In this document: positions 5,246 through 37,027 of the stretch, in pieces
Layout: every line of letters begins with the position of its first letter
Numbering within the stretch: position 1 is the first letter of the stretch
Assembly (NCBI GenBank): GCA_964357805.1
Contig: CAYHMS010000003.1
Coordinates: forward strand, 1-37,027
Direction: 5' to 3'
Origin: an uncultured Candidatus Saccharibacteria bacterium
GTDB taxonomy: Bacteria > Patescibacteriota > Minisyncoccia > Phycocordibacterales > Phycocordibacteraceae
DNA length: 37,027 nt
Notes under the pieces: generated by a model
The model's database searches: none
What the model saw: only the letters and a program-made list of their open reading frames with translations
Told to the model about the DNA's origin: nothing
Translations under genes and position numbers: made by a program

Positions 5246-5399
5246 TATGCGTTTAAAATCGCCTTTCCAAGCCGACGCTAAACATGCTCATGCCGTTTTA
5301 CGGCAAATAAGTCCCGAAGCGGCGTTTTTGGCAATTTAAATTCTTATCTGGATATATGTGTAAACTCGCCTATACAAGACGAGAAAATAGGTAAATAAG

Positions 5400-6080: not shown

Positions 6081-6132
6081 ACTCGTAGTATAAGCATATC
6101 TCGGCTCGTAGGGAAGGGCTGTGCATAACCAC

Positions 6133-9392: not shown

Positions 9393-9415
9393 TATCAATT
9401 CAGAATAAATTGACC

Positions 9416-9454
9416 GACACGACGTGTCCATCAGAAGCGTGTGGACAACGCTTC
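9416..9454. repeat. Right-end hairpins of the element
   Basis: 13-bp palindrome gacacg-a-cgtgtc (9416-9428) followed by ccatca. A second hairpin follows: gaagcgt, a 7-nt loop, acgcttc (9434-9454). Confidence 0.85.
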
Positions 9455-20332: not shown

Positions 20333-21220
20333 TCATTGTTTCTTAGCGATAATCATGAATTCACGCCCTATACCCGCAGCAATTAGACCGGCATAGAGGT
20401 CGTTCAGCAAACCAGGGTCTCTTTTATACAACGCCAATTCAAAAGCTTTGCGTTTTGCATGACAAGCTCGGCCTATCGTATGATTGCCGACATAGTTCTT
20501 GCCCGCAAGCAAAAATGTCTCTAGGGGATACGTGGCGAGCATGTCCTCTATAGTAAAACCGAGGCGAATTAATAAACGTTTCATACTCTCCATAGTGAAA
20601 TAATTGAGATGATGCTTCGGCGCGACCCACCACGGCTTGAAGCTATGCTTTTCGCGCAGGAGGCGTTGGAGCGGGTTGTAATCGTTTGGGCAGAAGACAA
20701 CAATACGACCACCCTTTTTAAGCATCTTCTTCATATTAGTGATGAAGCCGGCCGGGTCCGGTACATGTTCAAGCACCAGCGCCGCATGCACGACGTCGAA
20801 CATACCCAGTTTTTTTGCGCGGTCGTAACTGAAAAAGTCGTTCACGGTTGTAAGTCCGCGTTTGGCGCTGTACCGCGCCGCAGGAGATGAAGGCTCTATG
20901 CCGACCGTTTTCCATCCGCGCCTTTTGCCACACGCCAAGAAGTGACCTGGTCCCGAACCGATATCAAGAAGAGTGCGGCCTTTGGCCCGGCGTTCAAGCA
21001 GTTTGTAATAGTTATTGTAGGTCGCCGTCCACCACGAAAGGTCTTCTTTGGTCTCGCTAAAATAGTTCGGCCGTTCATGCTGATAAAATTCCTGTTCATA
21101 AAAATGTTTGAGTTCTTTGTCGCCCGGAAGAGGATACACGTGCGCAAAGCCACATACACGACAATTGATGACGCGTACACCGTCTTTTGTATCCAGTGTT
21201 GTGCCGGAATGTCTTTTCAT
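20333..21220 (-). CDS. Class I SAM-dependent methyltransferase with an N-terminal Zn-ribbon-like CxxC
   Basis: NCRVCGFAHVYP; motif I LLDIGSGPGHF; acidic loop VGIEPS. Confidence 0.75.
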   Translation of the reverse strand: MKRHSGTTLDTKDGVRVINCRVCGFAHVYPLPGDKELKHFYEQEFYQHERPNYFSETKEDLSWWTATYNNYYKLLERRAKGRTLLDIGSGPGHFLACGKRRGWKTVGIEPSSPAARYSAKRGLTTVNDFFSYDRAKKLGMFDVVHAALVLEHVPDPAGFITNMKKMLKKGGRIVVFCPNDYNPLQRLLREKHSFKPWWVAPKHHLNYFTMESMKRLLIRLGFTIEDMLATYPLETFLLAGKNYVGNHTIGRACHAKRKAFELALYKRDPGLLNDLYAGLIAAGIGREFMIIAKKQ

Positions 21221-22296
21221 ACTGCGATATCCTCTTTGGTAATCGGGGAGCGGGCGGGTATGGCGCGGGAAGCTTTTTTGCCCACGATAGTTTGCAGGTC
21301 CTTGGGCTCAATGCCGCGCATCGGTCGGAGTGTGAGCACCATATCTTCTGTAAGCGTCTCACCTGCTTTAATCTCGCATGCCGCATAGAGCGAACGGCGC
21401 GTGCCGCGCTCGCTCATTTCATCTGTCGCACGATCAGGTGCAACAACAGGTGCCTTCACCCCCGAACCCGAGAGCGCGGAGGAAAGGAAGCGTACTTCAG
21501 CAACCATCGCCTTAAACTGTGCTACCGTCATTGAATTTTTATCATCATTACTTCCCCCTTCCTGTGAGTCGGTAATATGGCGCTCGATAATACAGGCGCC
21601 GAGCGCCACGGCGCCGAGTGTTGCGGCGTTTGACGAGGGCGCGGAGTGGTCAGAATAGCCAATCGGGAGCGCTAATTCGCGGCGCATTGTCTCTATCGCC
21701 TTCAGATTCAGATCTTCGGGCTGTGGGGGGTAGAGCGACACACAATGAAGCACGGCTATCTGTTCGGCTATCTGTTCATTCCCAGCCTGTCGAATAACCT
21801 CTACAGCGTGCTTCACTTCGTCGAGATACGCCATACCGGTCGATATGATGATGGGCTTCCCCTTCTTCGCAATGTAGCGCAATAATATATCATCGGTTAA
21901 TTCATATGAGGCGACCTTAAATGCTGGTACGCCAGCTTCATCGAGCACCTCGACTGCTTCGTGATCAAAGGGCGTGGAGAGGAAGATGATGTTCCGTTCC
22001 TTTGCTCGTGCGACGAGCTGTGGCGTCCACTCGTACGGCAACTCGGACTTTGCATAAAATGCCGAGAGTGTACCGACCGGCTTGCCGTTCCACAGTGTGT
22101 CTATGGGAATGTCGGCAGCAATTGTGGTGCCTGTGAGATGCTGAAATTTTACTGCGTCCGCACCGGCCTCGGCCGCCGCGTCGATTGCAGAAAGTGCTGT
22201 CTCAATCTTGCCGCGATGATTCGCACTCACCTCGGCAATAATAAAAACCGGCTGACCCTCCCCAACCTCGCGCCCGCCGATAGTGATGTTCTTCAT
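21217..22296 (-). CDS. neuB: NeuB-family nonulosonic acid synthase, paralog 1 (candidate PseI-like), with a C-terminal SAF domain
   Basis: MKNITIGGREVGEGQPVFIIAEVSANHRGKIE...AVKFQ...FLSTPFD...KVASYELTD...IISTGMA...GYSDHS...IIERH. Start ATG at 22296. The track's longer form overlaps the upstream gene. Confidence 0.85.
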   Translation of the reverse strand: MKNITIGGREVGEGQPVFIIAEVSANHRGKIETALSAIDAAAEAGADAVKFQHLTGTTIAADIPIDTLWNGKPVGTLSAFYAKSELPYEWTPQLVARAKERNIIFLSTPFDHEAVEVLDEAGVPAFKVASYELTDDILLRYIAKKGKPIIISTGMAYLDEVKHAVEVIRQAGNEQIAEQIAVLHCVSLYPPQPEDLNLKAIETMRRELALPIGYSDHSAPSSNAATLGAVALGACIIERHITDSQEGGSNDDKNSMTVAQFKAMVAEVRFLSSALSGSGVKAPVVAPDRATDEMSERGTRRSLYAACEIKAGETLTEDMVLTLRPMRGIEPKDLQTIVGKKASRAIPARSPITKEDIAV

Positions 22297-22309
22297 AGAT
22301 GGTTCGATG

Positions 22310-22918
22310 TTACACCGGCCGCTCTCTTTTGTCCTCAATCGAAGCGGGCTTATAGGTGCCACTTTTAATAGCTTCAATACCGTGCGCCTCGGCGGCGAGA
22401 CGCGTCTGGTAGGCGAGAGACTTTTTCACCTGCTCGAATTCTTCGGCAAAAGCAGAATCATGCTGGCTAAGCACGAACTCGGAGGAGATAGTGGTCGCGG
22501 TGATGTTATTTTTTTCCTGCTCGTAAAATGTTTGGATGCGCGGTATCTGAAATTCGCTTGAGAGCAGGAGGAGGTGCTTCCATCCCTTCTCTTTTGCCAT
22601 CCGCAATACCTCCACTATTGAAGTGCGAGTGTTAACCGACTCTTCTTCTTTCTCTATTCGGTCGGGGGCTACACCCAAAGCCTGTAATTCATCGGCGTAA
22701 GTGTCCGCAAGCGTCGGGAGTACGTGATCCATCCGCTGACAGGTTGTCACAATCATTGCATCTGGATATTGTTTCGCCAAGAGAGCGGCGGCCTCCACGC
22801 GGTCGCGACCGCCCATCGTGCCAAACGCGTCGCTTTCATCATAGGTCGTGGTGCGCCATCCTCCCGCCTCAAGCGGCATCACGCCTGCTGAAAATATGAC
22901 GATGGCATCGGGGGACAT
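22310..22918 (-). CDS. DUF218 (YdcF/ElyC/SanA-like) protein
   Basis: DAIVIFSAG..., EEESVNTRTSIVE and LLLLSSEFQIPRIQ match the DUF218 pattern. The start is either ATG 22918 or ATG 23014. Confidence 0.6.
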   Translation of the reverse strand: MSPDAIVIFSAGVMPLEAGGWRTTTYDESDAFGTMGGRDRVEAAALLAKQYPDAMIVTTCQRMDHVLPTLADTYADELQALGVAPDRIEKEEESVNTRTSIVEVLRMAKEKGWKHLLLLSSEFQIPRIQTFYEQEKNNITATTISSEFVLSQHDSAFAEEFEQVKKSLAYQTRLAAEAHGIEAIKSGTYKPASIEDKRERPV

Positions 22919-23043
22919 ATCAATAGTATACAAAGAAAAAGGGCCCGAGGTTTTCCTCGAGCCCGCGTTCTGTATCGTCTTGATGTCGTTCGTTATCCAC
23001 CAAATCACAATCATGTTTGTCCAGCTACTCTACAAAATGCACT

Positions 23044-23081
23044 TGTATCTATTTTTGTCCTATAGGATATAATTTGATACA
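23044..23081. promoter_or_regulatory. 38-bp nested palindrome (operator copy 1) overlapping the promoter and start codon of the PaaX-like gene
   Basis: TGTATC (23044-49), N8, TCCTATAGGA (23058-67), N8, GATACA (23076-81). TATAAT lies at 23068-73, only 7 nt before the ATG at 23081 (suggesting a leaderless mRNA). A TTGTAT -35-like hexamer lies at 23043-48. Confidence 0.6.
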
Positions 23082-23671
23082 TGAGAAAAATGCGGACTGA
23101 AACGAAATACAGGCACCTACCAATGCGCAACCTTATTCTACGAACGTTAGCAGCAAGCGGTGTAGTAGGCGTTGCTCTTGTCGCACCGAAAACATTGTCT
23201 CTCTTGAAGAAATTAGACCGAGGGGCGGTTCATCGTAAAAATCTCTACCGACGGATTACGCAAGCGATATCCCGCCTTGAACGCGCCGGACTCGTACAAA
23301 CCTCAGGAGAGTACGGTCAGCGCCGCATTGAGCTAACATCGAAAGGGTACCGAGTGATTGAGACCGTATATGCGAATGAATATCGCATTCCCGAACCCGC
23401 GTTCTGGGACGGCAAGTGGAGAGTCGTTATGTTCGACATCCGCGAAAAACGCCGCAAGGCTCGCGCGCAACTTCGAGCACTGTTGAGAGGTGCCGGTTTT
23501 CTGCGGCTTCAAGACAGTGTTTGGGTATATCCCTATCCCTGCGATGAATTCATCGGACTCGTCCGTGCACACCTGAAAAGCGGCACAGGCGAGATGCTTT
23601 CTTTCGTCGCTGAAGCACTCGAATCAGACAAGAGACTGCGAGAACATTTCCATCTCCCCTCTCTATCTTAA
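23081..23671 (+). CDS. PaaX-like regulator: winged HTH plus a Cas2-like (PaaX middle) domain, lacking the long PaaX C-terminal domain
   Basis: wHTH: RRITQAISRLERAGLVQTSGEYGQRRIELTSKG. Cas2-like/PaaX_M pattern: WDGKWRVVMFDIREKRRKARAQLRALLRGAGFLRLQDSVWVYP. This is the only plus-strand gene I support in the window. Confidence 0.55.
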   Translation: MRKMRTETKYRHLPMRNLILRTLAASGVVGVALVAPKTLSLLKKLDRGAVHRKNLYRRITQAISRLERAGLVQTSGEYGQRRIELTSKGYRVIETVYANEYRIPEPAFWDGKWRVVMFDIREKRRKARAQLRALLRGAGFLRLQDSVWVYPYPCDEFIGLVRAHLKSGTGEMLSFVAEALESDKRLREHFHLPSLS

Positions 23672-23672
23672 A

Positions 23673-23710
23673 TGTATCGCTTTTTGTCCTATAGGATGAA
23701 GACTGATACA
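23673..23710. promoter_or_regulatory. 38-bp nested palindrome (operator copy 2), immediately 3' of the PaaX-like gene
   Basis: TGTATC (23673-78), N8, TCCTATAGGA (23687-96), N8, GATACA (23705-10). The geometry matches copy 1, and the 17-mer tttttgtcctataggat is identical. It starts 2 nt after the stop codon. Confidence 0.55.
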
Positions 23711-23736
23711 TTGCAATGAACAAACCCCGTAGTGGA

Positions 23737-24654
23737 CTAGGTGAGCTTTATCTTGCTCCAGAGACTCGGGTTGATGGCGCCGCGGTTGAGGTCGCTGAAC
23801 GCCTCTTGTATCTCGGCTACCAAACCGCTCTCTCCCCCCTTCTCAACGCCAGTATCTTCCGCGAGCTGTGCAGGAGTATCCACGCCAAACACGATGCGAT
23901 CCGCGCGGCACGCGCCATTGACGAACTGGAATGAGGATTCTACGGGCGAAAGACCGTACTTATTGCTTATTGCAATGAATTGTTCCAACTGCGGTCGTAA
24001 CGTTGCGAGATGTTCCGGCAATTCACTCGGTCGCATGAGCAGAAGCCCTTGCAAAAATGGGCTACGGGCAAAGACCGTGACTTTGTTTTTTTTTGCGATG
24101 TCAAAAAAATCGGTGGCGTCCAACCGCTGGTCAAATGCATTGTACGGCACCTGCACATAGTCAACGCCAAGCTCGGCTGCCTGGAGTGCCTCTGCTTCAT
24201 CATAGATAGACACGCCTATGTTCTTCACGAGACCATCTTCTTTTGCTTTCTGCATCCCTTTCACCATGTGCTTGAGAAATATGTAATGGGACGAGTGGAA
24301 GAGATACCCGTCGAGCGATGTTATGTTAAGTCGCTTCAGTGACTTCTCAAGTTCTGTTCGTACAATATCAACGGCTTTTGTTCCATCGGAATAATCGTTC
24401 AAAGCGTGCGGTTTCATCTTAGAAATAACCCGTACCTTGCCCGCGAGGGCGCGCACCTTAATCCACACACCGAGAACATCTTCTGCCGAACCATAAGCCC
24501 ACGCCGTATCAAACGTATCAATACCGGCCGCGAAAGCCGTGTCCAAGATTGCAAATGCCTCTTCTCTCGTCGGCTGGCCGTGAGTATTATTGAGTCCGTA
24601 CTTCATCCCAAATTGAACGGTACCGAGTACGAGTTTATTTTTTTGCGTGGTCAT
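23737..24654 (-). CDS. Aldo/keto reductase
   Basis: LVLGTVQFGMKYG...DTAWAYGSAEDVLG...HS...SIYD: AKR (TIM-barrel) motif spacing, 305 aa. Confidence 0.8.
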   Translation of the reverse strand: MTTQKNKLVLGTVQFGMKYGLNNTHGQPTREEAFAILDTAFAAGIDTFDTAWAYGSAEDVLGVWIKVRALAGKVRVISKMKPHALNDYSDGTKAVDIVRTELEKSLKRLNITSLDGYLFHSSHYIFLKHMVKGMQKAKEDGLVKNIGVSIYDEAEALQAAELGVDYVQVPYNAFDQRLDATDFFDIAKKNKVTVFARSPFLQGLLLMRPSELPEHLATLRPQLEQFIAISNKYGLSPVESSFQFVNGACRADRIVFGVDTPAQLAEDTGVEKGGESGLVAEIQEAFSDLNRGAINPSLWSKIKLT

Positions 24655-25424
24655 ACAGATTTTTTAAACGCCTCATCTTCTTTCAAAGATTTTTCTAGAC
24701 CCTCATAGCCCGTACCTCCTTTATTTATTTCCAAAAGTTCCGGTCGTTGTGCGAGCAAGGCGAGAACATCGTCTTTATTAAAACTCGGATTTATGGGATA
24801 AAGTTGCTCGTATATTTTTGCCACAAAATCGAAATCCTGCTCGGTATCCACCGACCAGTGCATGGCGGAATGGTCGCCGCCGCCGCTCGTCCACGCGCCA
24901 TCAATATGAAATAATTCCGGATGATTGCGAATGTAGGGTGTTACATGCTCGCGTTCCGAAGGCAGCTTCGCTTCCTTCCATGCGCGCTCAAGCGCTTCAA
25001 ACGAAAATACTTCCGTATCTAATCCTTCTGGATAATTCGCAGGGGAGTGCGTGTAATCAACTTTACTGTTCAAGAAATGTCCAATGACTTCATCAATAAC
25101 TGCAGGGTCGTGGAGCGGACAATCACCCGTGAGGCGCACGACAACACCCGCTCCGGTCTCTTTAGCCGCTTTATAAAACCGGTCTAGCACATCGTGTTCA
25201 TCGCCGCGGAAGACCTGCACGCCGCATCTTTTCGCGAGTTCTGCGGTCGCATCATCTTCTGGCTTATCCGTCGTCGCAACGACGACCGCATCGAGCTTCT
25301 TCGCGCGCTTCACGCGCTCCAGCATCCGCGCGAGCATCGGCTCGCTCAATATCGGCTTCAGTATCTTCCCCGGCAATCGTGTTGACCCCATCCGCGCTTG
25401 AATAATGCCGACTGTTTCCGTCAT
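24651..25424 (-). CDS. SpsF-like cytidylyltransferase (CMP-sugar/acylneuraminate cytidylyltransferase superfamily)
   Basis: GIIQARMGSTRLPGKILKPI...VVVATTD...RGDEHDVLDRF...RLTGDCPL. Confidence 0.75.
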   Translation of the reverse strand: MTETVGIIQARMGSTRLPGKILKPILSEPMLARMLERVKRAKKLDAVVVATTDKPEDDATAELAKRCGVQVFRGDEHDVLDRFYKAAKETGAGVVVRLTGDCPLHDPAVIDEVIGHFLNSKVDYTHSPANYPEGLDTEVFSFEALERAWKEAKLPSEREHVTPYIRNHPELFHIDGAWTSGGGDHSAMHWSVDTEQDFDFVAKIYEQLYPINPSFNKDDVLALLAQRPELLEINKGGTGYEGLEKSLKEDEAFKKSV

Positions 25425-25431
25425 ATTATTA

Positions 25432-26772
25432 TTAGTTCAATCGCGCGAAATGGGAATGCGCGATGGGACCTTTGAGACGTTTGCGCACCGAATCGGTGTC
25501 CAGCGCTTTGCGAATTTCGGCGAACACGCCGTCAAGAGCTTTGCTATACCGTTTGATATGCGCAGACGTGTGCGCACACGACGGGTTGAATTCGGTTGAG
25601 GCGAGGAATCCACGCTCAAGCATTTCTTGCGTAAAAAGAGTTTTCAGCGCTTGTGCGTCGTCATACTGGAAAGAAAATAAATTGTAAGGGACTGTTCCGC
25701 CGATGTTGATTTTCAGTCCGTGTTTTTTTGCTACACTCGCCCAGCCCGCGCGCATCTGCGCGGCCGCGGCCTTGATGCGCTTTGGCACGTTCACCTTCTT
25801 CATCTTCTTCAAGGTCGCGAGCGCGGCCGCAGGGCCCGTGCGGTCGGTCCAGTAGGTGCTTGAGATAAACGTGTCCTGCGCCGCTTGCATGACGGCGCGC
25901 TTCCCGATAATCGCCGCCATCGGGAAGCCGTTGCTCATCGCTTTGCTGAATACCGCCATATCCGGATTGACGCCATATATAAGGTGCGCCCCGCCGTAGG
26001 TGAGTTTCCAACCGATGGACACTTCGTCAAAGATAAGCACCGCGCCGGTTTTGTCGGCAATCGCACGAATTTTTTTAAGAAAATTATCTTTCGGCTCCTC
26101 GCTGTGAAGCGGTTCCATGACAATTGCCGCGAGCCGTTTGCCTGCATGCTTCACGATTGCTTCCAGCTCTTCAAGATGGTTGTAGCGGAACGGCAGGATG
26201 CTTCCGCGCAATCCTCGCGGCACGCCCTTCGCGTCAAGCCCGGCGAGCAAATGTTCCTTGAGCCCGTCGGTCGTGCCGAGATTCGTCGCCAGATACCAAT
26301 CGGCCCACCCGTGATACCCGCAAAAGGCGATAATATCGCGGTCGGTATGGGCGCGCGCGATGCGCACCGCGATAGCCATCGCCTCCCCTCCGCCGCGCGC
26401 AAAGCGCGCCATATGCGCCCAGGGGTGTAGAGCGCATAAGAGTTCAGCAAGCTCCACTTCTTCGGGTGCGTTCAGAGTGGACATAGAACCGCGGTTTACA
26501 GCGTCTTTGACCGCTTTGTTTACGTCAGGGTCGGCATAGCCCAAGAGACAGCTCCCCACCGCCATCCTGCCCATATCGTAATAATGGTTGCTGTCGAGGT
26601 CCCATACTTCGCACCCTTTCGCTTTTGAGTAATACGCCGGCCACTGGTCGGGCAGGAACATCTCCGCGCGCTTGGAGAGCAGTTGGTTCCCGCCCGGGAT
26701 CAGCTTCTTAGCTTTCTGCCATAATTTCTGCCCGGTTCCTTTTTTGCTGCCATATTTTTTTGCTTTTTTCAT
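25432..26772 (-). CDS. Class-III PLP aminotransferase (glutamate-1-semialdehyde aminomutase-like)
   Basis: LIPGGNQLLSKR...DLDSNHYYDM...GGGEAMAIAVRIARA...IFDEVSIGWKLTYGG...VFSKAMSNGFP (the PLP-binding Lys context). Confidence 0.8.
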   Translation of the reverse strand: MKKAKKYGSKKGTGQKLWQKAKKLIPGGNQLLSKRAEMFLPDQWPAYYSKAKGCEVWDLDSNHYYDMGRMAVGSCLLGYADPDVNKAVKDAVNRGSMSTLNAPEEVELAELLCALHPWAHMARFARGGGEAMAIAVRIARAHTDRDIIAFCGYHGWADWYLATNLGTTDGLKEHLLAGLDAKGVPRGLRGSILPFRYNHLEELEAIVKHAGKRLAAIVMEPLHSEEPKDNFLKKIRAIADKTGAVLIFDEVSIGWKLTYGGAHLIYGVNPDMAVFSKAMSNGFPMAAIIGKRAVMQAAQDTFISSTYWTDRTGPAAALATLKKMKKVNVPKRIKAAAAQMRAGWASVAKKHGLKINIGGTVPYNLFSFQYDDAQALKTLFTQEMLERGFLASTEFNPSCAHTSAHIKRYSKALDGVFAEIRKALDTDSVRKRLKGPIAHSHFARLN

Positions 26773-26774
26773 AG

Positions 26775-27437
26775 TTATGCGGCGTATCCGATGCCCAATT
26801 TTTTCTGGTACAATGTCACAACTGCACGCATATTATCTGGCGTACGCGTGTTTATCTGCTTGTTGGTCCGATAATCATGTATAAACCGTTCGACGAGCCG
26901 GTAATTGCCAGTCGCTTCGAAAAGCGCACCATAGTCCATTTTCCAGGTGGAGACGCCGCTCTTGAGATGATGATAATGATTCCTGCGCGGTGTGCGGGGT
27001 AAAAAGTCGCTTACCAGAAGATACCCGCCCTCGGCAACAACGCGATCTATCTCGACGATGGAAGCGAGAAGCTCTTCTCGCGAAACCCAATGCAGGACAA
27101 ATATAACAAGCACGAGATCGAACACACTTTTAACCGGCAATGCGGAAGCCACTCCGCGTAGCAACATCAGTTTCGGGAAAGCTTTCTTCCCTGCTCGTAC
27201 CGCCGCACGCGATGGCTCGACGCCGACATATGAAACGCGCGGTCGGCGCATACGCAGCGCTTCAAGCCGCCAACCATTGCTCGCTCCCACTTCAAGTACG
27301 CTTTTTGGTGCAAGCTTATGGCGGCGCAGAAGCATGAGTGGGATGTCGCCGGTGCGCTTCACAGGAGCGAGCGCGTGCGCGTTGCGTTTGTACCATGCAT
27401 CGGCCTCACTTTTTAAAAAAATATCCTCTTGTGTCAT
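26775..27437 (-). CDS. SAM-dependent methyltransferase (resembles the pseudaminic-acid-associated methylase family)
   Basis: Motif I VLEVGASNG; VGVEPS; LVLVIFVLHWV. It sits directly downstream of pseB-pseC. Confidence 0.6.
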   Translation of the reverse strand: MTQEDIFLKSEADAWYKRNAHALAPVKRTGDIPLMLLRRHKLAPKSVLEVGASNGWRLEALRMRRPRVSYVGVEPSRAAVRAGKKAFPKLMLLRGVASALPVKSVFDLVLVIFVLHWVSREELLASIVEIDRVVAEGGYLLVSDFLPRTPRRNHYHHLKSGVSTWKMDYGALFEATGNYRLVERFIHDYRTNKQINTRTPDNMRAVVTLYQKKLGIGYAA

Positions 27438-28576: not shown

Positions 28577-28578
28577 GT

Positions 28579-29616: not shown

Positions 29617-30596
29617 TACAGAGATTTTCGTATCAAATACACCAGCCGAGAGCCCGTGCCAGATATTTTTGACTTGAATAGACTTATACCTTTCTCGCGC
29701 TCGGAAGTGAAAACGGGTCCCAAGTCATAGTAGCGGATACCGCGCGCGAGCAACTCTTCCACTGCCCTACATTGTAGCTGATAGCCGATGCACGACTTGC
29801 TCATTTCTGGCGCGACCGCAACCGAACCATAGTATGCCGTACCTTTATACACATTTATGAGTGCCATGCCCGCAATGGCGCCCGTTTTCTTATGTCTAGC
29901 AACGACATAAAAACCTTCTCCCTCCCTCGCCGAGTCCGTTTGTTTACCATAACTTTCTCTTGACCTGAACTGGCCTCCGGCATCGGAAACATGCAACGCA
30001 AAATACTTTTCCTCCAACTCAAGAGATATGCACGCTCCTTCTGCAACAGAAAGCTCAAAGAATGGCGAGAAGCGTTTGTAGTCATATCGAGAGCATACGC
30101 GGACCAATAGCTGTGGCATAACTTCCGTGAAGTGGTGTTCAGAGATAATTGTTTCGTATCCATTCCGAAAAGCGATGCGGCGTACCCGCGACTCCTCATT
30201 GCTGGTATTCTGCGGTGGCGCAAAAAAGACGAAGATACTCTCTGCGCCCGCTTTGCGGGCGCGTTGCTCCAGTTCTGTACATGCAAAATCTTCCAATGCT
30301 TCTCTATTCTGCACATCCTTTCTGAAGCACGGCCACGGGAGAAATCCCGAGTAGTAAGCGGCTTGAAGAGTACCCTCCCGTTCTTCGATTATGAGCGGCA
30401 CGACACCAACAGCCCGTCCTCTGTCATATACAAAAAAAGAAAGGTCCCTCGCTGCATATTTCTCTCCTGCACAGAGATTGAACTCGTGCGAGAGCCACGT
30501 ATGCCACAGCCATCCGTCGCTGGAGGCATCCACTATCTCTTGCCAAAGTTTTGGCGCTCCGTCCACTTTTGCTATATCAATTGCTTGTAGGTCCAT
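29616..30596 (-). CDS. FemAB/BioF2-like GNAT-fold acyl- or aminoacyl-transferase
   Basis: I prefer the ATG at 30596 (MDLQAIDIAKV...). The upstream ~100 codons of the track ORF overlap the preceding gene. The C-terminal block GFYVVARHKKTGAIAGMALINVYKGTAYYGSVAVAPEMSKSCIGYQLQCRAVEELLARGIRYYDLG resembles FemX/FemAB and Acetyltransf_6. Confidence 0.5.
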   Translation of the reverse strand: MDLQAIDIAKVDGAPKLWQEIVDASSDGWLWHTWLSHEFNLCAGEKYAARDLSFFVYDRGRAVGVVPLIIEEREGTLQAAYYSGFLPWPCFRKDVQNREALEDFACTELEQRARKAGAESIFVFFAPPQNTSNEESRVRRIAFRNGYETIISEHHFTEVMPQLLVRVCSRYDYKRFSPFFELSVAEGACISLELEEKYFALHVSDAGGQFRSRESYGKQTDSAREGEGFYVVARHKKTGAIAGMALINVYKGTAYYGSVAVAPEMSKSCIGYQLQCRAVEELLARGIRYYDLGPVFTSEREKGISLFKSKISGTGSRLVYLIRKSL

Positions 30597-32439
30597 GTTG
30601 TTTCCGTGAAAGCCGTCTGATGAATGCTCCCATACGCTCAGATGATTTCCCATCGAAGGAACATCTCTCAAGAAAATGCTTCTGTCGCGCCAGAAGTTCT
30701 TCGCGATACAACGAATCGGCAAAAATGCGTGCAAGAACATCAACAAGCTCCCCCGCAGTATGAGTGAGCGGCGCCGCAGGTGCGTACACCTGTGCATTGC
30801 AGGTATCAAAGGATTTCCATGGATACAAGACGAGAGGCTTCTGTGCCAGCATTGTTTCATAGATGACCGTTGAATTTCCGCACACCACGGCATCACTCGC
30901 GCATACAAGCGGGAAAAGTTCTTCGCTTCCGGCTATCGCGCTATCGGCGGGAAATAATTCTTGAATATATTCCCGCATCGCTCCATCACACTCATGGCGG
31001 CGAAATTTAAAAAGCACCTGCATACCGGGAATCGTGCTCTGCGCCGCATGGACCGCTTCAAAGAACTCGGCACATTGATACGAATCAAATGCGGACGTAT
31101 TTACATCGGAAAACGGCACTGCAACGAGGAGGACCGGTCGCGTATGGTCGAGTCCGAGTTGTGCGAGCATCTGTTTCCCTTTTTCAAGCGCACCGGCCCG
31201 CGCGTTAACATACCCATCAAAGCGCGGCGAGCCTATCGCGATAAGCCGCTCGCGCGGACGACCCATGCGTTCATGCCACGCATTTGTGTCAGCGCCGTAG
31301 GTCGCAAGATAGTCGGTCTCAAAACGGGAATACGCCGTGCGGAGGTCGAAAGAGTTTATCCCGTGCTGCAACTCTATAGAAGGTATGGCGAGCTGTGCGG
31401 CGACGCGCGCCATGATGAAAAAGTAGTGATGCCGACCGGCGACGGATGCCGACTGGAGCACGACATCCGGTTTTTCCTCTTCCATGATGCGGCGCACCGC
31501 GCCTATGTCGGCGATAACTCGCAGTGCATAGGAGGCCACGAGATATTCGCATGCCTGCAGTACAGGACTCCAGTCGAGTCCTTCTCGCGCGCTGGCGAAG
31601 TATTCTGCGACTTCTTTTTTTGCCGTTTCCCACTGCTTCGCAAACTTCGCTGAAATCCGAACGGCTTCCTTCCTCTCTTCACCATGTATCTCATCACGAG
31701 GATGCCGGACGCGGATGCGATGGGCAAGTAATTGCCGCCAGGATATCTGCTTGAGCGCGCCGCTTTCCATAAGTACGAGCTCCACATCGTCCATCTTCTC
31801 TATAATCGGTGCGATATGCGACCAATACTCGCCGGCATATATCTTGAGACTGCGACGTGGTACGAAACTGATGATGCTATTATATATCCGTATAAGGAGC
31901 GACTTCCTTACGGTCTGAAAAAACGGGGGTGCAGGAGACGCTACCAATTTACCGAGAACGTCGAAGCGCAGACCAGCCATGCGTGCCGCATCCGTGGCTA
32001 TCCGTCGCTCGAAAGACACCAGACACTCGTCGGTTGACCTGTCCTCTATGATAAGGGCGGGAATGGAGACGTGTGCGCCAGGGTACGTTTTTTTAAGAGC
32101 CGCATATATCCGCACGTAATAAAATAGCTTGGACAGATATTCTTCCAGTATTGGTTCTACGACTTCGGCAATCCGAATATTATTGTACTCAAAAAATTTC
32201 ATAGCGGGCAGATGATACCACTTATATGCGACCTCTTGGGCGAGGAGCCACCACTCTTCTTCCGTATGCTCCGGAATCACCACATCTCTTAGAGAGACGC
32301 ATGGAACACCCTTTTTTATAAGCTCCCGCTCAACCAAGAAATTAAGGCACACTATTGTTGCATCGCGCGCCGCGTGCGCGCGCGCGAGGTCTACATGCCA
32401 TAATTCGTAGGCTATACATAGCTCCTTTGGTTCGGTCAT
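30577..32439 (-). CDS. 620-aa uncharacterised protein with a GT-B-like C-terminal half (TagF/glycerophosphotransferase-like or capsule-synthesis-like)
   Basis: Start ATG at 32439 (MTEPKELCIAY). C-terminal motifs: IAIGSPRFDGYV, RPVLLVAVPF, VVCGNSTVIYETMLAQKPLVLYPW. I recognised no family for the N-terminal half. Confidence 0.35.
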   Translation of the reverse strand: MTEPKELCIAYELWHVDLARAHAARDATIVCLNFLVERELIKKGVPCVSLRDVVIPEHTEEEWWLLAQEVAYKWYHLPAMKFFEYNNIRIAEVVEPILEEYLSKLFYYVRIYAALKKTYPGAHVSIPALIIEDRSTDECLVSFERRIATDAARMAGLRFDVLGKLVASPAPPFFQTVRKSLLIRIYNSIISFVPRRSLKIYAGEYWSHIAPIIEKMDDVELVLMESGALKQISWRQLLAHRIRVRHPRDEIHGEERKEAVRISAKFAKQWETAKKEVAEYFASAREGLDWSPVLQACEYLVASYALRVIADIGAVRRIMEEEKPDVVLQSASVAGRHHYFFIMARVAAQLAIPSIELQHGINSFDLRTAYSRFETDYLATYGADTNAWHERMGRPRERLIAIGSPRFDGYVNARAGALEKGKQMLAQLGLDHTRPVLLVAVPFSDVNTSAFDSYQCAEFFEAVHAAQSTIPGMQVLFKFRRHECDGAMREYIQELFPADSAIAGSEELFPLVCASDAVVCGNSTVIYETMLAQKPLVLYPWKSFDTCNAQVYAPAAPLTHTAGELVDVLARIFADSLYREELLARQKHFLERCSFDGKSSERMGAFIRRLSRKQHGPTSN

Positions 32440-32455
32440 GGTTGCGCAGTTTTTG

Positions 32456-33406
32456 CTAGTGTGCGACGTACTTGTTGTTCCGGGCCTTTTTTGCTCCCGG
32501 ATACTGATAGGGTCCCAATGCATCTACCATAGCGGATGTGTACGGATGAATGATGAACATGCTTTTCGTTTCCAAGGTGTGGCTCATTTCCTCGGTAGTC
32601 AAGAGTGCTTCGCGTAACTTTTCTCCGGGTCGCATACCGATGAAAGAGAGCATTGTCTTTTTACTGTTCCCATATTTTGCTATAGCAGCTTTAGCGAAGT
32701 CTACGATGAAGCGTTCTTTCATTTTCAGCACAAAAATTTCTCCCCCCTTCATGAGGCGCATCCCCTCAAAGATAAATCGAACCGCTTCCGGTATTTCCAT
32801 AAAGAAACGGAGCGCTTTTCGATGAGTGACCGTTACCGGGCCGCCAGCTTCTATCTGCTTGCGCCAAAGATGAATGACCGACCCGCGCGAGTTCAGCACA
32901 TTGCCAAACCGCACGGCAGAAAATCTCGTGCGAGACGGGCCGGTCATAAGGTTTGCGGCAATAATGAGCCGCTCCATCATGAGCTTGGAGGCACCAAGCA
33001 CCGACTCGGGACTTACCGCCTTGTCGGTTGAGATAGCGACTACTTTTTCAAGATTGTGCTTAATGCTGACATCGATGACATTTTGAGTTCCTACAATGTT
33101 CGTCTTCACCGCTTCGAACGGATTATATTCGCATACCGGAACGTGCTTCAGCGCGGCAGCATGAAAGCAAATATCCGCTCCCTGAAAAGCGAAATCAAGA
33201 CGGTCCCTATCCCGAACATCACCGACAAGATACCGAAGACGCTTGTCATCGCCGAGCTCCTGATTAAGCTCGTGCTGTTTATGCTCATCTCGGCTGTAGA
33301 TGCGTATTTGGGCCGCCTTGGTCGCGAGCAACTGACGGACAATTTCTGACCCAATAGAGCCGGTTCCGCCCGTCACGAGAATAACTTTATTTTTGAACTC
33401 TTTCAT
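32456..33406 (-). CDS. PglF/CapD/WbpM-type (probably retaining) UDP-GlcNAc 4,6-dehydratase
   Basis: VILVTGGTGSIGSEI, YSRDEHKQHEL, GDVRDRDRL, HAAALKHVP. The SDR Tyr position reads L (SVLGASK), whereas PseB has NLYGATK. Confidence 0.75.
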   Translation of the reverse strand: MKEFKNKVILVTGGTGSIGSEIVRQLLATKAAQIRIYSRDEHKQHELNQELGDDKRLRYLVGDVRDRDRLDFAFQGADICFHAAALKHVPVCEYNPFEAVKTNIVGTQNVIDVSIKHNLEKVVAISTDKAVSPESVLGASKLMMERLIIAANLMTGPSRTRFSAVRFGNVLNSRGSVIHLWRKQIEAGGPVTVTHRKALRFFMEIPEAVRFIFEGMRLMKGGEIFVLKMKERFIVDFAKAAIAKYGNSKKTMLSFIGMRPGEKLREALLTTEEMSHTLETKSMFIIHPYTSAMVDALGPYQYPGAKKARNNKYVAH

Positions 33407-34523
33407 GTTGTTGAAGTGTTGTGCCCAATATTTCTACTATGTTTTTTATGTCCTGTCTAGTAAGCCCGATGTAAAACGGCAGTGCGAGCACGGAAGCGCT
33501 TATGCTCTCTGCAATGGGAAAGTCTCCCGCGTCATACCCGAAGCGGTCTTTATAAAAAGAGAAGAGGTGTATGGAGGGCAAATACGGTTTACTGCTCACT
33601 CCTCTTTTTGCCAGCTCTTGTATGACGGTGTCTCGGTTGGTGCGCGAATTTTTTATTTGCACTACATACACAAACCACGTGTGCGTCGCCCCAGGAGCGG
33701 TCCGGGGAATTTCGACCAACGAGCGTATTCGTTTCAACTCTTTTCCATACCAGCGCGCAATTTCTTGGCGCTTCTTTATTAGAAAATCAATTTTCTCTAT
33801 TTGAGCTAAACCGAGTGCCGCGCTCATCTCGTCCATGCGATAGTTAAAGCCCAAGTACTTATGGTCAAGCCACTGCATGTCAGGAGTGCGCCCTTGGTTG
33901 CGCAAACTTCTGCACAGTTCATCTACAGCCCTGTCGTTGGTGACAATCATGCCGCCCTCTCCAGTCGTCATCTGTTTATTCGCATAAAAAGCAAAAACTC
34001 CCGATTGTCCGAATGTACCCGCCATCTTCCCCTTATGCTTCGCGCCGAGAGATTCGCAGGCATCTTCAATGACCATGAGTTTATGCTTTTTAGCGATTTT
34101 CATTATGGCCCCCATTTCCGCAGGCTGTCCGAAGATATGGACGGGCAAAATTGCCTTTGTCTTTTTTGTTACGGCTTTTTCAACTTTCTTCGGGTCTATA
34201 TTGCCGGTGCGCTGGTCGACATCGACAAACACTGGCTTCGCACCGACATACAAAATCACGTTTGCTGAAGCGATAAAAGAAAACGGCGAAGTGATGACTT
34301 CGTCGCCTTTCTTGATGCCAACGGCAATGAGCGCGAGATGCAATCCTGCCGTACCGCTGGAAACAGCACAGGCGTACTTCGCGCCAACGAATTTTGCAAA
34401 CTTCTTTTCAAATGCTTCTATTTTAGGTCCGATGCTGAGAGTGCCGGAGCGCAGAACTTCAAGGACGTATTTCTCCTCCTTTTTGCCGATATGAGGGTGC
34501 GCCATCGGATATGACTTTTTCAT
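33387..34523 (-). CDS. DegT/DnrJ/EryC1-family sugar aminotransferase (PglE/LegC-like)
   Basis: VLEVLRSGTLSIGPKIEAFEKKFA...SSGTAGLHLAL...FAFYANKQMTTGEGG. Confidence 0.8.
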   Translation of the reverse strand: MKKSYPMAHPHIGKKEEKYVLEVLRSGTLSIGPKIEAFEKKFAKFVGAKYACAVSSGTAGLHLALIAVGIKKGDEVITSPFSFIASANVILYVGAKPVFVDVDQRTGNIDPKKVEKAVTKKTKAILPVHIFGQPAEMGAIMKIAKKHKLMVIEDACESLGAKHKGKMAGTFGQSGVFAFYANKQMTTGEGGMIVTNDRAVDELCRSLRNQGRTPDMQWLDHKYLGFNYRMDEMSAALGLAQIEKIDFLIKKRQEIARWYGKELKRIRSLVEIPRTAPGATHTWFVYVVQIKNSRTNRDTVIQELAKRGVSSKPYLPSIHLFSFYKDRFGYDAGDFPIAESISASVLALPFYIGLTRQDIKNIVEILGTTLQQHERVQK

Positions 34524-34567
34524 AGAGTATCGAGTTTATCACTATAACCAGATAACGATAAGTTACG

Positions 34568-34960
34568 TTACTTAGACACGATCTTCGCCGGAATGCCGTA
34601 GGCGAGGGCGCCGGCGGGAATATCTTTCTTGACGAAGCTGTATGCGCCGATGACGGCGCCCTCTCCGATGGTTACTCCCGGCATGATAGTAGCGTGGGCA
34701 CCAATTTTTGCGCCCCTGCCAATGGTTACCTTGCCTGATGTGTTGTCCTCGGTGTTAAGGCTATAAATGGAACAGTGTGAACCAATTTGGACTTCGTCGC
34801 CAATCTCCACACCATGATGCGCGAAGATGGCAGTGAATGCGCCGATGTCGGTCTTCCTCCCCAATTTCAAGTTTTCAGGACGGAAGACGACCCACAGCCA
34901 TTTCGTCATTTCGCCGTGTTTCATCACCGGTGGCGTCCACGTATCAAAGCGATCTGACAT
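34568..34960 (-). CDS. Left-handed beta-helix (hexapeptide-repeat) acyl/acetyltransferase (PglD/LegH-like role)
   Basis: Hexapeptide repeats: IGDEVQIGSHCSI, IGRGAKIGAHATI, PGVTIGEGAVIGAYSFV. Confidence 0.75.
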   Translation of the reverse strand: MSDRFDTWTPPVMKHGEMTKWLWVVFRPENLKLGRKTDIGAFTAIFAHHGVEIGDEVQIGSHCSIYSLNTEDNTSGKVTIGRGAKIGAHATIMPGVTIGEGAVIGAYSFVKKDIPAGALAYGIPAKIVSK

Positions 34961-34970
34961 ATTTTTATTG

Positions 34971-36110
34971 TTAGTAATTAATTTGCTTAGCTAAAAGTCG
35001 CACATCAATAACTAAATCTTCAAGAATTTTAGCGACACGGGGGCCGGTTGTGCCGTCGCCCCAGGGACTTTTCACCTTCTGAAGTTTATCTCGGTACGCC
35101 TCGTCATGCAAAGATTTTTCAATCGCCGCGATTATTTCATTTCTTGCATAGCCGACATCCAACACATTTCCCCCTCTTTGTCGGCCGGTCTGGCGCGTGC
35201 CGATATTCACCACCGGCGTTTTAAATGACGGAGATTCTATGAGCGCTCCGCTTGAATTGCCGACCCAGACTGCGGCTTCCCGCTCCAAGGCGAGAAACTG
35301 CGTGTGCGAGAGACTTGGGACGATGCGGAACAGAGGATTCTTTTTCTCCCTATCAATGATAGCAATCATCTTCCGTCCGCCGGCGTCCGCATGCGGATAT
35401 GTGATGACCACAGGCAGATTAAACGTCTTGACTGCTTCAATAGTTTCTTTCATTTGCCTTTCAGCATCGTTTATTTCTTCACTTACCGGATGCTGGCTGA
35501 CTAAGATGATTTGCTCTTTCGGGTCGAGCTTGAGTTCGCGGAAGAGTTCTTCACGCGTCGGCAACTTCTCATTCAGAATGGTATCCAAGGCCGGCGCTCC
35601 GACCACATGAATGCGCCACTCGTCCTCGCCCATCTTTTTAATCCTCTCAGCTGATTCTTCAGTTGCTGGGAAATGAATATGGGAAAGTTTGGTGATGGCG
35701 TGCCGAGCCAACTCATCAACAGTTGAAGTTCTCTCCCCGCCATGCACGTGTCCGATCGGGATGCCGAGATAGAGGCATGCCACGGCTGTGCAGAGCATTT
35801 CCGGCCTATCGCCCAGAGTCAGAACGAAATCAGGCCGGTCGTGAGAAAAAATGCCAACTAATTTGTTTAAAAAATCTCCGGTAAACTTCGCCATGCCCTG
35901 TCGGTTATCATTCTCAAACGTCGCTGATATTTCTTTCGTCTCGGGAAATTCTTTTCTAACCTGTTCTATCGTTTTACCAAATTCCGGCATCAGGTGAATG
36001 CCGGTCGCGTACATCTGTAACTCCAGTTTCGGGCTGTCAATAATTGCCTTGAGAATAGGGACCATCAGACCGAAATCCGCTCTTGTCCCAGTTATATACG
36101 CAATCTTCAT
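34971..36110 (-). CDS. neuC: UDP-N-acetylglucosamine (or UDP-diNAcBac) 2-epimerase, hydrolysing (NeuC/LegG-like)
   Basis: MKIAYITGTRADFGLMVPILKAI...LTLGDRPEML...IGHVHGGERTSTVDE...NSSGALIESPSF. Confidence 0.85.
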   Translation of the reverse strand: MKIAYITGTRADFGLMVPILKAIIDSPKLELQMYATGIHLMPEFGKTIEQVRKEFPETKEISATFENDNRQGMAKFTGDFLNKLVGIFSHDRPDFVLTLGDRPEMLCTAVACLYLGIPIGHVHGGERTSTVDELARHAITKLSHIHFPATEESAERIKKMGEDEWRIHVVGAPALDTILNEKLPTREELFRELKLDPKEQIILVSQHPVSEEINDAERQMKETIEAVKTFNLPVVITYPHADAGGRKMIAIIDREKKNPLFRIVPSLSHTQFLALEREAAVWVGNSSGALIESPSFKTPVVNIGTRQTGRQRGGNVLDVGYARNEIIAAIEKSLHDEAYRDKLQKVKSPWGDGTTGPRVAKILEDLVIDVRLLAKQINY

Positions 36111-36121
36111 TTTTTATATCG

Positions 36122-37027
36122 TTATGCGAGCATTTCCCATTGTAATGGCGTGCCGCGGGAAATAGTTTGTTTTGCCGTTTTGCCGACAATCTCATCAAAA
36201 TGCTTTGGCGGAATGCCCGTGCCCGGACGTACGATATAAATGTCTTCGGCCGCAATCCGCGTATTCGCCGGGATATCGCGGCGCGCGACGACACTCTTGC
36301 GGGAGACCTTCGCCGTATCCAATTCCCCTTTGCTCGGTTTCTTCTCCGGCGAGCCGAGTGCCTGTTCTATCACGCGAATGCACCGTATCATTTCTTTGAG
36401 TTCACTGGGTTCCAGCGATGCTTTATGGTCAGGACCCGGCAGACTGCGGTCAAGAGTAAAATGTTTTTCTATGAGCTGTGCGCCGAGCGCCGCCGCCGCA
36501 ATGGCGACGCATATGCCCTCACTGTGGTCAGAGAGCCCCGTCGGGAGCCCGAACTCACCCGCGAGCGTCTGCATCGCGCGCAAATTTATATCGGCAGGAG
36601 GAGTCGGGTATTCCGAGGTGCAATGGAAGATGGCGATGTCTGTGGCTCCATTTTTTTTGAGCACATCGAGCGCCTCGCGGACCTCTTCAAGCGTACCCAT
36701 CCCTGTTGATAAAATGACGGGTTTCCCTTTTTTTGCAATATGCGCGAGGAAGGGTAGGTTGTTCAGTTCGCCCGAAGGAATTTTGTATGCCGCGATATCC
36801 AGCGTCTCCAAGAAATCAGCATCAGGCATACTAAAGGGCGTTGAAAGAAAAACTAATCTCTTCTCTTCGGCGTACTTCTTCAACGCGCTATGCTCTTTGT
36901 GCGGAAGCACGAGGTCGCGGAGCATGTTTATCTGACTTTCTTCTTTTCCGGTATTCGTTACCTGATATTCCGCCTGCAGAGCGTCATCGCTCACGAGTTC
37001 TTCAGGCGTAAACGTTTGAAATTTAAC
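36122..37027 (-). CDS. neuB: NeuB-family nonulosonic acid synthase, paralog 2 (LegI/NeuB-like); 5' end beyond the right edge
   Basis: The frame is open to the window end (..LNFQTFTPEELVSDDALQAEYQ...). Motifs: FLSTPFS, YKIPSGELNN, ILSTGMG, GLSDHS, LIEKHFTLD and a C-terminal SAF domain. The track's M at 36994 is an internal GTG. Confidence 0.85.
   Translation of the reverse strand, partial: VKFQTFTPEELVSDDALQAEYQVTNTGKEESQINMLRDLVLPHKEHSALKKYAEEKRLVFLSTPFSMPDADFLETLDIAAYKIPSGELNNLPFLAHIAKKGKPVILSTGMGTLEEVREALDVLKKNGATDIAIFHCTSEYPTPPADINLRAMQTLAGEFGLPTGLSDHSEGICVAIAAAALGAQLIEKHFTLDRSLPGPDHKASLEPSELKEMIRCIRVIEQALGSPEKKPSKGELDTAKVSRKSVVARRDIPANTRIAAEDIYIVRPGTGIPPKHFDEIVGKTAKQTISRGTPLQWEMLA

Follow-up and report, generated by a model that had tools for sequence, protein, structure and literature searches.

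One locus, probably two sialic-acid-like sugars: a legionaminic-type and a pseudaminic-like gene module side by side in a Candidatus Kaiserbacteria genome

Does a gene island with two nonulosonic acid synthases make two different sugars, or a single one that is heavily tailored? The question is raised by a stretch of 37,027 nucleotides of contig CAYHMS010000003.1 (the window, by which we mean this whole stretch), in which an earlier note, made from the sequence by itself, had recognized two pathway front ends and two NeuB paralogs between position 21217 and the right-hand end. We consider it probable that this island encodes two parallel, complete nonulosonate pathways, which is the best explanation of the locus as a whole. 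The first is a legionaminic acid (Leg)-type block on the right (module A), and the second a pseudaminic acid (Pse)-like block in the middle (module B). The island represents one allele at a hypervariable surface-glycan locus, in the genome (roughly 1 Mb) of an ultra-small groundwater bacterium of the Candidatus Kaiserbacteria (Patescibacteria). Loci used for comparison are referred to by L numbers.

From around position 13260 rightward to the edge of the window, nearly all genes are encoded on the minus strand, where they are tightly packed, often with overlapping stop and start codons. Transcription runs from right to left, and the right-hand block contains, in this order, genes for a synthase, an epimerase, an acetyltransferase, an aminotransferase, and a dehydratase. 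The island is thus co-directional as first described, except for one plus-strand gene (23081-23671) that interrupts the array. Each gene named in the earlier note is an intact minus-strand open reading frame with a strong family match, but a TagB/F-like protein (GT620), a FemAB/GNAT-like protein (Fem326), a DUF218 protein, and the leftward extension of the island had been missed.

The window ends inside the gene for the first synthase, NeuB#1 (36122-37027 and beyond, minus strand), of which it contains the 3′ 301 codons, the 5′ end lying outside. The exact protein sequence of the neighboring NeuC is present on 14 public contigs, most of them from Hainich groundwater well H41 and many from the 0.1-μm filter fraction. 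L001 overlaps the end of the window with 0 mismatches over 12,057 nt, is part of the same genome, and reaches 9 kb further. Directly upstream of NeuB#1, 4 bp away, it encodes a CTP_transf_3 cytidylyltransferase of 233 aa (L001:8228-8929), which scores 193 bits against the PseF model (cut-off 205.7). The earlier count of only one cytidylyltransferase is therefore correct inside the window but an artefact of its edge, and the 233-aa protein is a candidate for the CMP-Leg synthetase that the note suggested seeking past 37027. Further upstream are genes for a WbuX N-acetyl-sugar amidotransferase (316 bits, above the cut-off of 203) and a WbuZ/WbuY-like HisF-HisH fusion. L001 also encodes a TagB/F-like GT-B protein of 633 aa (U633; L001:3424-5325) and an FkbM methyltransferase. 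At the far upstream end of the recovered region (L001:1-2378) we observed genes for pyruvate-dehydrogenase-E1-like alpha and beta subunits and an RfaE-like PfkB kinase, which could belong to a further sugar-tailoring or heptose branch of the same island.

With L001 included, five steps are present in duplicate. The paralogous pairs are the dehydratases (Dehydratase#1 and the PseB-like protein, 43% identity), the aminotransferases (DegT#1 and PseC, 38%), the synthases (NeuB#1 and NeuB#2, 36%), the cytidylyltransferases (the 233-aa protein and an SpsF-like protein, with similarity at the N-terminus only), and the GT-B proteins of about 620 aa (U633 and GT620, 25% over the full length, E 8e-43). 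What we observed directly, here and below, is which genes are present, the families to which they belong, their paralogy and synteny, the fusions of domains, and the separation of clades. Degeneration of one paralog set, which the earlier note had named as an outcome that would undermine its reading, was considered and rejected: all paralogs are full-length with their motifs kept, including both dehydratase and aminotransferase pairs. In related genomes each module is also found alone, the Leg-like one in L098, L099, and the recovered part of L100, and the Pse-like one in L087, L088, L101, and others. Because five steps are duplicated, the cytidylyltransferase and the putative transferase among them, and because each module occurs alone in relatives, two separate sugars are more likely than one hybrid, which settles in favor of the former a choice that the earlier note had left between them.

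Under the hybrid alternative, one heavily tailored nonulosonate would be supplied by the two front ends and the two synthases together, or one set would serve as a redundant back-up. The co-directional, tightly packed arrangement with its many overlapping stop and start codons would agree with this, as would the distribution of tailoring genes (methyltransferases, class-III aminotransferase, amidotransferase) across both blocks. It does not sit well, however, with the duplication of the cytidylyltransferase and the putative transferase, or with modules that stand alone beside the same ABC exporter in related genomes. The dehydratases, moreover, differ at the catalytic Tyr in a module-specific manner. 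Among 11 dehydratases of related loci, a Leu at this position was found only in modules with NeuC and a NeuB#1-type synthase, and a Tyr only in modules with a NeuB#2-type synthase. Overall, we regard a single hybrid sugar as very improbable.

The right-hand set fits a Leg pathway, as the earlier note had proposed. All of its genes lie on the minus strand. Dehydratase#1 (32456-33406) is a Polysacc_synt_2 4,6-dehydratase (344 bits, Pfam) with Leu at the position of the catalytic Tyr, in a motif, STDKAVSPESVLGASK (SVLGASK), common to the dehydratases of other Leg-like modules. Besides the window protein, Leu-type dehydratases are encoded at L098:15230-16168, L099:14157-15095, and L089:891-1940. 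The retaining dehydratases PglF and Bacillus subtilis SpsM have Met at this position (Met146 in SpsM; PMC7439481), and so does CapE. DegT#1 (33387-34523) is a predicted sugar C4 aminotransferase of the LegC/perosamine-synthase-like type. Among solved structures it matches perosamine synthetase best (3BN1, 296 bits), with PseC and PglE behind, which fits a LegC-like enzyme. The next gene to the right encodes a short left-handed beta-helix N-acetyltransferase (130 aa; 34568-34960; Hexapep, 55.8 bits), of which a copy with 86% identity was found in the Leg-only island of L009. Further to the right are a NeuC/LegG-type hydrolysing 2-epimerase (34971-36110), with 399 bits against TIGR03568 (cut-off 235.9), and NeuB#1, which at its full length of 351 aa, taken from L001, scores 463 bits against TIGR03569 (cut-off 399.65) and 319 bits against the PseI model; neither TIGR03568 nor TIGR03569 separates Neu from Leg enzymes. 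The dehydratase, aminotransferase, and acetyltransferase genes are contiguous with those for NeuC and NeuB#1 in one co-directional block, unlike the N-acetylneuraminic acid (Neu5Ac) pathway, which comprises NeuC, NeuB, and NeuA only. The Leg-like modules recovered in full (L098 and L099) contain NeuC and no DUF218; L100 ends one gene past NeuB. L099, a contig from Hainich H41 with 377x coverage, is a second abundant Patescibacteria contig with two NeuB-family genes in one island. One of its NeuB proteins has 317 aa, lacks a SAF domain, and adjoins a Glyphos_transf-like protein, and its Leg-like module includes a formyltransferase.

Since the models do not tell Neu from Leg, the right-hand block could also be split between two unrelated products: NeuC, NeuB#1, and the 233-aa cytidylyltransferase would make CMP-Neu5Ac, while the dehydratase, aminotransferase, and acetyltransferase would provide a residue derived from UDP-N,N′-diacetylbacillosamine (UDP-diNAcBac). 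NeuB#1 does pass a model named N-acetylneuraminate synthase, as NeuC passes TIGR03568, and some public sources give that name to NeuB#1 homologs, one of which (81% identity) was named by NCBI. Two homologs named by JGI (about 71-72% identity), however, are both labelled N,N′-diacetyllegionaminate synthase. NeuC is also closer to a solved GDP/UDP-diNAcBac hydrolysing 2-epimerase (5XVS, 208 bits), its nearest solved relative, than to human GNE (184 bits); 5XVS is a structure from Acinetobacter baumannii. Neighbors among the five genes in the window either overlap or leave gaps of no more than 44 bp, the cytidylyltransferase gene lies 4 bp upstream of NeuB#1, and their order is the exact reverse of the Leg pathway. 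Finally, the adjacent WbuX/HisF-HisH amidotransferases belong to a group that acts on acetamido sugars such as Leg and Pse. Taken together, these features make the split into Neu5Ac and diNAcBac unlikely, and we keep to a Leg-type product for module A.

The middle block opens, as the earlier note had recognized, with PseB- and PseC-type enzymes. Its genes, too, are on the minus strand apart from the one named above. The PseB-like protein (28579-29616) is a Tyr-type UDP-GlcNAc 4,6-dehydratase that matches FlaA1 of Helicobacter pylori (2GN4, 310 bits) and shares its motif NLYGATK. PseC (27434-28576) scores 486 bits against TIGR03588, above the equivalog cut-off of 423.5, and is 50% identical to PseC of Bacillus cereus. 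Upstream of this pair are the genes for GT620 (30577-32439), a TagB/F-like GT-B protein of 620 aa and the putative nonulosonate transferase of the module, and Fem326 (29616-30596), a FemAB/GNAT-like acyltransferase of 326 aa. GT620 matches Glyphos_transf with 34 bits (cut-off 22.1) and the BFO_1060 family with 32 bits, well under the 200-bit cut-off of the latter, and its homologs precede PseB in L087, L088, and L101. Fem326 matches Acetyltransf_6 (27.7 bits), Acetyltransf_1 (24.9 bits), and FemAB_IMCC1989 (37 bits); it is a candidate substitute for PseH, found in the window genome only.

Downstream of PseC follow a class I S-adenosylmethionine-dependent methyltransferase of 220 aa (26775-27437; Methyltransf_11, 45 bits), with a weak match to the Pse-associated methylase TIGR03587 (33 bits), and a class-III aminotransferase resembling glutamate-semialdehyde aminomutase (25432-26772; PRK06209, 268 bits, below the cut-off; GntE-like, 230 bits). 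The next gene encodes an SpsF-like cytidylyltransferase (24651-25424; CTP_transf_3, 136 bits), the probable CMP-nonulosonate synthetase of the module. The pse operon of B. cereus encodes an unnamed “glycosyltransferase family protein” with which it shares 30% identity (E 4e-30). With only 36 bits against the PseF model TIGR03584, the SpsF-like protein does not qualify as PseF and falls into a different CTP_transf_3 subfamily. SpsF is the putative cytidylyltransferase of the Leg pathway of B. subtilis, where deletion of spsF leaves Leg in the mother cell and absent from the spore surface (PMC7439481). An aldo-keto reductase (23737-24654; Aldo_ket_red, 122 bits) comes next, followed by the sole gene of the island on the opposite strand (23081-23671, plus; PaaX_M/Cas2-like, PaaX_M 63 bits). 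It is possibly a regulator gene that was inserted here and now divides the operon: in L087 no gene was called between the aldo-keto reductase and DUF218 frames, and in L101 the two form one fused gene.

The DUF218 (YdcF-like) protein of 202 aa (22310-22918; 47 bits) is a conserved member of the module and precedes NeuB#2 (21217-22296). A longer frame of 234 aa was rejected, as the homologs have 200-202 aa and a terminator-like hairpin lies inside the extension. This strong hairpin (22941-22964, minus strand) has a 10-bp stem with 8 GC pairs and a T-run, and closely precedes 22918, the likely start of DUF218. The synthase gene is followed by those for a methyltransferase of 295 aa (20333-21220; Methyltransf_23, 86 bits) and an ATP-grasp ligase of the L-amino-acid-ligase type (19099-20331; LAL_C2, 65.5 bits, above the cut-off of 29.4; ATP-grasp_4).

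To describe the module beyond the window, we compared it with the neighborhoods of six NeuB#2 homologs in other Patescibacteria (L087, L088, L089, L101, L102, and L103), two of whose source records carry the names Nomurabacteria and Taylorbacteria. All seven modules, the window included, encode a PseB-like and a PseC-like protein, an SpsF-like CTP_transf_3 protein, DUF218, a methyltransferase, and an ATP-grasp ligase; the methyltransferase gene directly follows that of the synthase in five of the seven. The aldo-keto reductase and the class-III aminotransferase were found in six of the seven, and NeuC in none. Several members were fused: CTP_transf_3 with DUF218 (L089:8582-9934 and L103:8486-9940), the aldo-keto reductase with DUF218 (L101:8447-9988), and CTP_transf_3 with the class-III aminotransferase domain Aminotran_3 (L102:11751-13829). 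These fusions, found in different Patescibacteria genomes, tie the functionally undefined members of the module together.

Neither a canonical PseG nor a canonical PseH could be found in the window, which bears out the earlier note. For PseG, there was no NCBIfam match, and tblastn with the B. cereus protein gave nothing; for PseH, there was again no NCBIfam match, and tblastn with the B. cereus protein gave one chance-level match of 49 residues (E 0.72). BLASTP was likewise negative. Comparison of the GT620 and DUF218 families with PseG by hhalign gave probabilities of 3.5% and 0.4%, respectively, and Fem326 showed no similarity to PseH. The DUF218 family, the GT620 family, and Fem326 had no significant match among the sequences of solved structures. 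A structure model of DUF218 (predicted local distance difference test score, 95.7) gave only weak Foldseek matches in the PDB, with a TM-score of at most 0.5. Module B does encode an ATP-grasp ligase and a GNAT-like protein other than PseH.

The two synthases were placed in a neighbor-joining tree (Kimura distances, 41 sequences, 342 columns, 200 bootstraps) that included the solved references PseI (8H2C), SpsE of B. subtilis (1VLI), and NeuB of Neisseria meningitidis (1XUU), along with plasmid-borne genes annotated as pseI or neuB. They fell into different clades and not into one, the other outcome that the earlier note had regarded as damaging. NeuB#1 belongs to a Patescibacteria clade (98% bootstrap) among neuB genes located next to neuC, outside the PseI clade. 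NeuB#2 forms a clade with 11 Patescibacteria homologs (100%), and the PseI clade is likewise supported at 100%. Homologs of NeuB#2 (58-85% identity) are widespread in Patescibacteria. Its nearest solved relative is PseI (8H2C, 195 bits), and the description that suits it best is that of a PseI relative specific to this lineage.

Several points weigh against two complete pathways of the types proposed. In module A, Dehydratase#1 is overall nearer to the inverting PseB (2GN4, 265 bits) than to the retaining PglF (5BJU, 167 bits); its retaining activity is predicted from the absent Tyr and the gene context alone, stereochemistry not being readable from sequence. DegT#1 falls below the cut-offs of both the LegC family (317 bits; cut-off 420) and the PseC model (336 bits), and the acetyltransferase scores 67 bits against the NeuD/PglB/VioB family (cut-off 160.8). 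In module B, the PseB-like protein, its Tyr/Lys motif intact, scores 388 bits against TIGR03589, just short of the cut-off of 407.75, and NeuB#2 falls short of the cut-offs of the PseI model TIGR03586 (308 bits; cut-off 340.25) and the NeuB model (289 bits). The NeuB#2 clade is sister to PseI at only 58% bootstrap, in a distance tree with few experimentally characterized references. Both cytidylyltransferases score below equivalog cut-offs, and no enzyme for the release of UDP was identified in module B. The weak fold matches of DUF218 are to the N-domain of argininosuccinate synthase, YdcF, and universal stress proteins, which are compatible with nucleotide binding and assign no reaction. GT620 and U633 are candidate transferases by analogy only, because in B. 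subtilis the Glyphos_transf-type protein, SpsB, does not act as the Leg transferase (PMC7439481). For both modules, the products are predicted from genes alone.

Some of these points bear on a rival reading of module B, namely that its product is not of the Pse type. It might differ in stereochemistry, or be a 2-keto-3-deoxy acid with other substituents, such as a triamino or N-aminoacyl nonulosonate, which would make the NeuB#2 clade a new functional class. The low model scores of NeuB#2 and its separate clade with a loose link to PseI suit this reading, and so do the names given to its homologs in public sources, which are inconsistent (SpsE, legionaminate synthase, or merely “family protein”). 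The same holds for the lack of PseG and PseH in a module with a conserved aldo-keto reductase, class-III aminotransferase, DUF218, and ATP-grasp ligase, which are fused to one another in part. On the other hand, the module always opens with a Tyr-type PseB-like protein and a PseC that passes its cut-off, which would fix an L-altro-type precursor if they act like their homologs, and PseI is the closest solved structure to NeuB#2. A product outside the Pse type is thus a serious possibility, if a doubtful one, and we continue to describe module B as Pse-like.

From these assignments we infer every chemical step, the stereochemistry of the sugars, and the acceptor, together with what DUF218, the ATP-grasp ligase, the aldo-keto reductase, and the class-III aminotransferase do. 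In module A, the non-Tyr 4,6-dehydratase would act first, followed by the LegC/perosamine-synthase-like aminotransferase, the hexapeptide N-acetyltransferase, the NeuC/LegG-type 2-epimerase, and NeuB#1, after which the 233-aa cytidylyltransferase would yield a CMP-legionaminic acid derivative. The WbuX/HisF-HisH amidotransferase set probably turns one acetamido group into an acetamidino group, and U633 is the likely transferase. In module B, the PseB-like protein and PseC would produce an intermediate of the UDP-4-amino-4,6-dideoxy-L-AltNAc type. The amine would then be acylated in place of PseH, probably by the ATP-grasp ligase and/or Fem326; for UDP removal in place of PseG, DUF218 is the leading guess. 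NeuB#2 would condense the free sugar with phosphoenolpyruvate and the SpsF-like enzyme would activate the product to a CMP-linked Pse-like sugar, with tailoring by the aldo-keto reductase, the class-III aminotransferase, and the methyltransferases, and transfer by GT620. An ABC exporter and a Wzy_C/TPR protein, encoded at the left end of the island, would carry the glycan out of the cell and link it to an acceptor on the surface.

Loci with both a Pse and a Leg pathway are already known. In Campylobacter jejuni, the flagellin glycosylation locus (PseBCHGIF and LegB/C/H/G/I/F) combines the two pathways with separate synthases, NeuB3/PseI and NeuB2/LegI, and also encodes acetamidino tailoring (PseA, WbuX-like) and methyltransferases. 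C. jejuni, however, uses GDP-linked Leg precursors and a LegB-type dehydratase, and the LegB model reaches only 60 bits in the window. Its canonical PseG, PseH, and PseF and its Maf-type transferases for flagellin are all missing from our island, whose conserved flanks are instead an ABC exporter and a Wzy_C/TPR protein. The lga/psa K loci of A. baumannii resemble the island in having interchangeable nonulosonate modules at one fixed chromosomal site, and in a short soluble Polysacc_synt_2 dehydratase that opens the Leg module. They differ in normally having one nonulosonate module, Wzx/Wzy export, and a diderm cell, whereas the island combines two modules in a Patescibacteria genome with near relatives of about 1 Mb. 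The sps genes of B. subtilis share the UDP-based route, a non-Tyr dehydratase (SpsM, Met146), and an SpsF-type cytidylyltransferase (PMC7439481). Unlike the island, the Bacillus operons (sps of B. subtilis and the Pse operons of B. cereus/thuringiensis) keep SpsG, SpsD, pseG, and pseH, and their dehydratase has Met where ours has Leu.

Two further systems concern single components. In the general O-glycosylation system of Tannerella forsythia, transfer of Pse and Leg derivatives depends on TagB-like members of the BFO_1060 family (PMC5420450). Like these paralogous GT-B proteins, GT620 and U633 are full-length paralogs, with weak matches to BFO_1060 and Glyphos_transf; unlike them, they occur together in one genome, whereas each T. 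forsythia strain has one sugar and one transferase, and the family match is 32 against a cut-off of 200 bits. In the Pse cluster of Vibrio sp. B9-25K2, a fusion of an SpsF-like protein with an aldo-keto reductase follows PseC and replaces NeuA/PseF (PMC7371886), a further fusion of the kind that ties members of module B together. That cluster, however, keeps PseG and a PseH domain, and is not reported to include DUF218, a class-III aminotransferase, or an ATP-grasp ligase.

What appears to be new is the conserved Patescibacteria module without PseG and PseH, along with its fused gene set, and the modular hotspot beside a conserved exporter/ligase pair. Our literature search found no paper that links Patescibacteria, the candidate phyla radiation, or Kaiserbacteria to nonulosonic, pseudaminic, or legionaminic acids, none that links DUF218 to nonulosonic-type sugars, and no earlier description of the conserved gene set of module B. 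The module offers testable candidates for the missing activities, including DUF218, a family without an assigned reaction, and suggests possible new nonulosonate structures. More tentatively, Patescibacteria may have a route of their own, free of PseG and PseH, to a Pse-type or stereochemically new nonulosonate. The SpsF-like protein, the aldo-keto reductase, DUF218, and the class-III aminotransferase would replace the middle steps, with the ATP-grasp ligase and the methyltransferase completing the set, and the product would be N-aminoacylated, methylated, and possibly additionally aminated. If so, DUF218 would gain its first biochemical role, for example in nucleotide release from a UDP-sugar or in CMP-sugar tailoring, and ultra-small episymbiotic bacteria would diversify their surfaces by module swaps at one chromosomal hotspot.

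The surroundings of the island show how variable this site is. Leftward of 21217, the island continues to around 13260 with the methyltransferase and ATP-grasp genes described above and four more minus-strand genes. Two of these are accessory: a mannitol-1-phosphate-dehydrogenase-like oxidoreductase found in this island only (17990-19102; Mannitol_dh_C, 84 bits; all NCBIfam matches below cut-off), and an inositol-monophosphatase-family phosphatase (17205-17993; Inositol_P, 162 bits). The other two form the conserved flank. The first is an ABC exporter with fused membrane and ATPase domains (15442-17208; ABC_membrane, ABC_tran), a candidate lipid-linked-glycan flippase. The second is a Wzy_C (O-antigen-ligase-like) membrane protein with a C-terminal TPR region (13260-15425; Wzy_C, 70.8 bits), a candidate glycan ligase or O-oligosaccharyltransferase. 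Left of it are murB, secA, an IS200-like gene, obg, and gatB. The SecA protein shares 76-84% identity with proteins of Candidatus Kaiserbacteria/Paceibacterota, and one complete chromosome among these genomes measures 993 kb. The ABC exporter is 61-77% identical in relatives with the secA backbone and 51% identical in the more distant L035, and the Wzy_C/TPR gene is conserved beside it and murB-secA.

Because these relatives keep the backbone gatB-obg-secA-murB-Wzy_C/TPR-ABC exporter but vary beyond the exporter, we call the island one allele of a hypervariable locus. Past the exporter, some relatives have only a Leg-like module (L009/L098), some have NeuB proteins of other clades beside SpsF-like or NeuA-like genes (L010, L012, L014, L017, L019, and L020), and some have no NeuB. 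NeuB-family genes occupy this chromosomal site in six of the 10 Kaiserbacteria/Paceibacterota relatives whose DNA reached the ABC exporter gene, and at least four further NeuB-family lineages, besides the NeuB#1 and NeuB#2 clades, were found there in the tree. The expectation that nonulosonate genes would be unusual for a small-genome organism is therefore wrong for this lineage, in view also of the wide distribution of NeuB#2 homologs in Patescibacteria; peculiar to the window allele is the combination of a Leg-type with a Pse-like module. With genomes of about 1 Mb, Patescibacteria do without many core biosynthetic pathways. The window genome nevertheless gives at least 33 kb, more than 3% of about 1 Mb, to two predicted sialic-acid-like sugars, and does so at a hypervariable locus. 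We read this as a sign that surface identity is under strong selection, with host attachment, phage evasion, and grazing avoidance as possible contexts.

The remainder of the window yielded a few minor observations. No RNA genes were detected in it by Rfam (gathering thresholds, with E-value mode on 1-5600) or ARAGORN. The IS200-like gene between secA and obg (8697-9431, minus strand) encodes a Y1 transposase-family protein of 244 aa, and a Y1_Tnp gene also adjoins the Wzy_C gene in L089. At the left end, a minus-strand open reading frame of at least 1596 aa (3-4790) continues past the edge of the window; Pfam gave no match for it, and a 135-bp tandem repeat occupies 1372-1670. The N-terminus of the encoded protein, which may be a giant surface protein and a target of glycosylation, resembles the HTH_17-like N-terminus of an adjacent protein of 246 aa (5400-6140).

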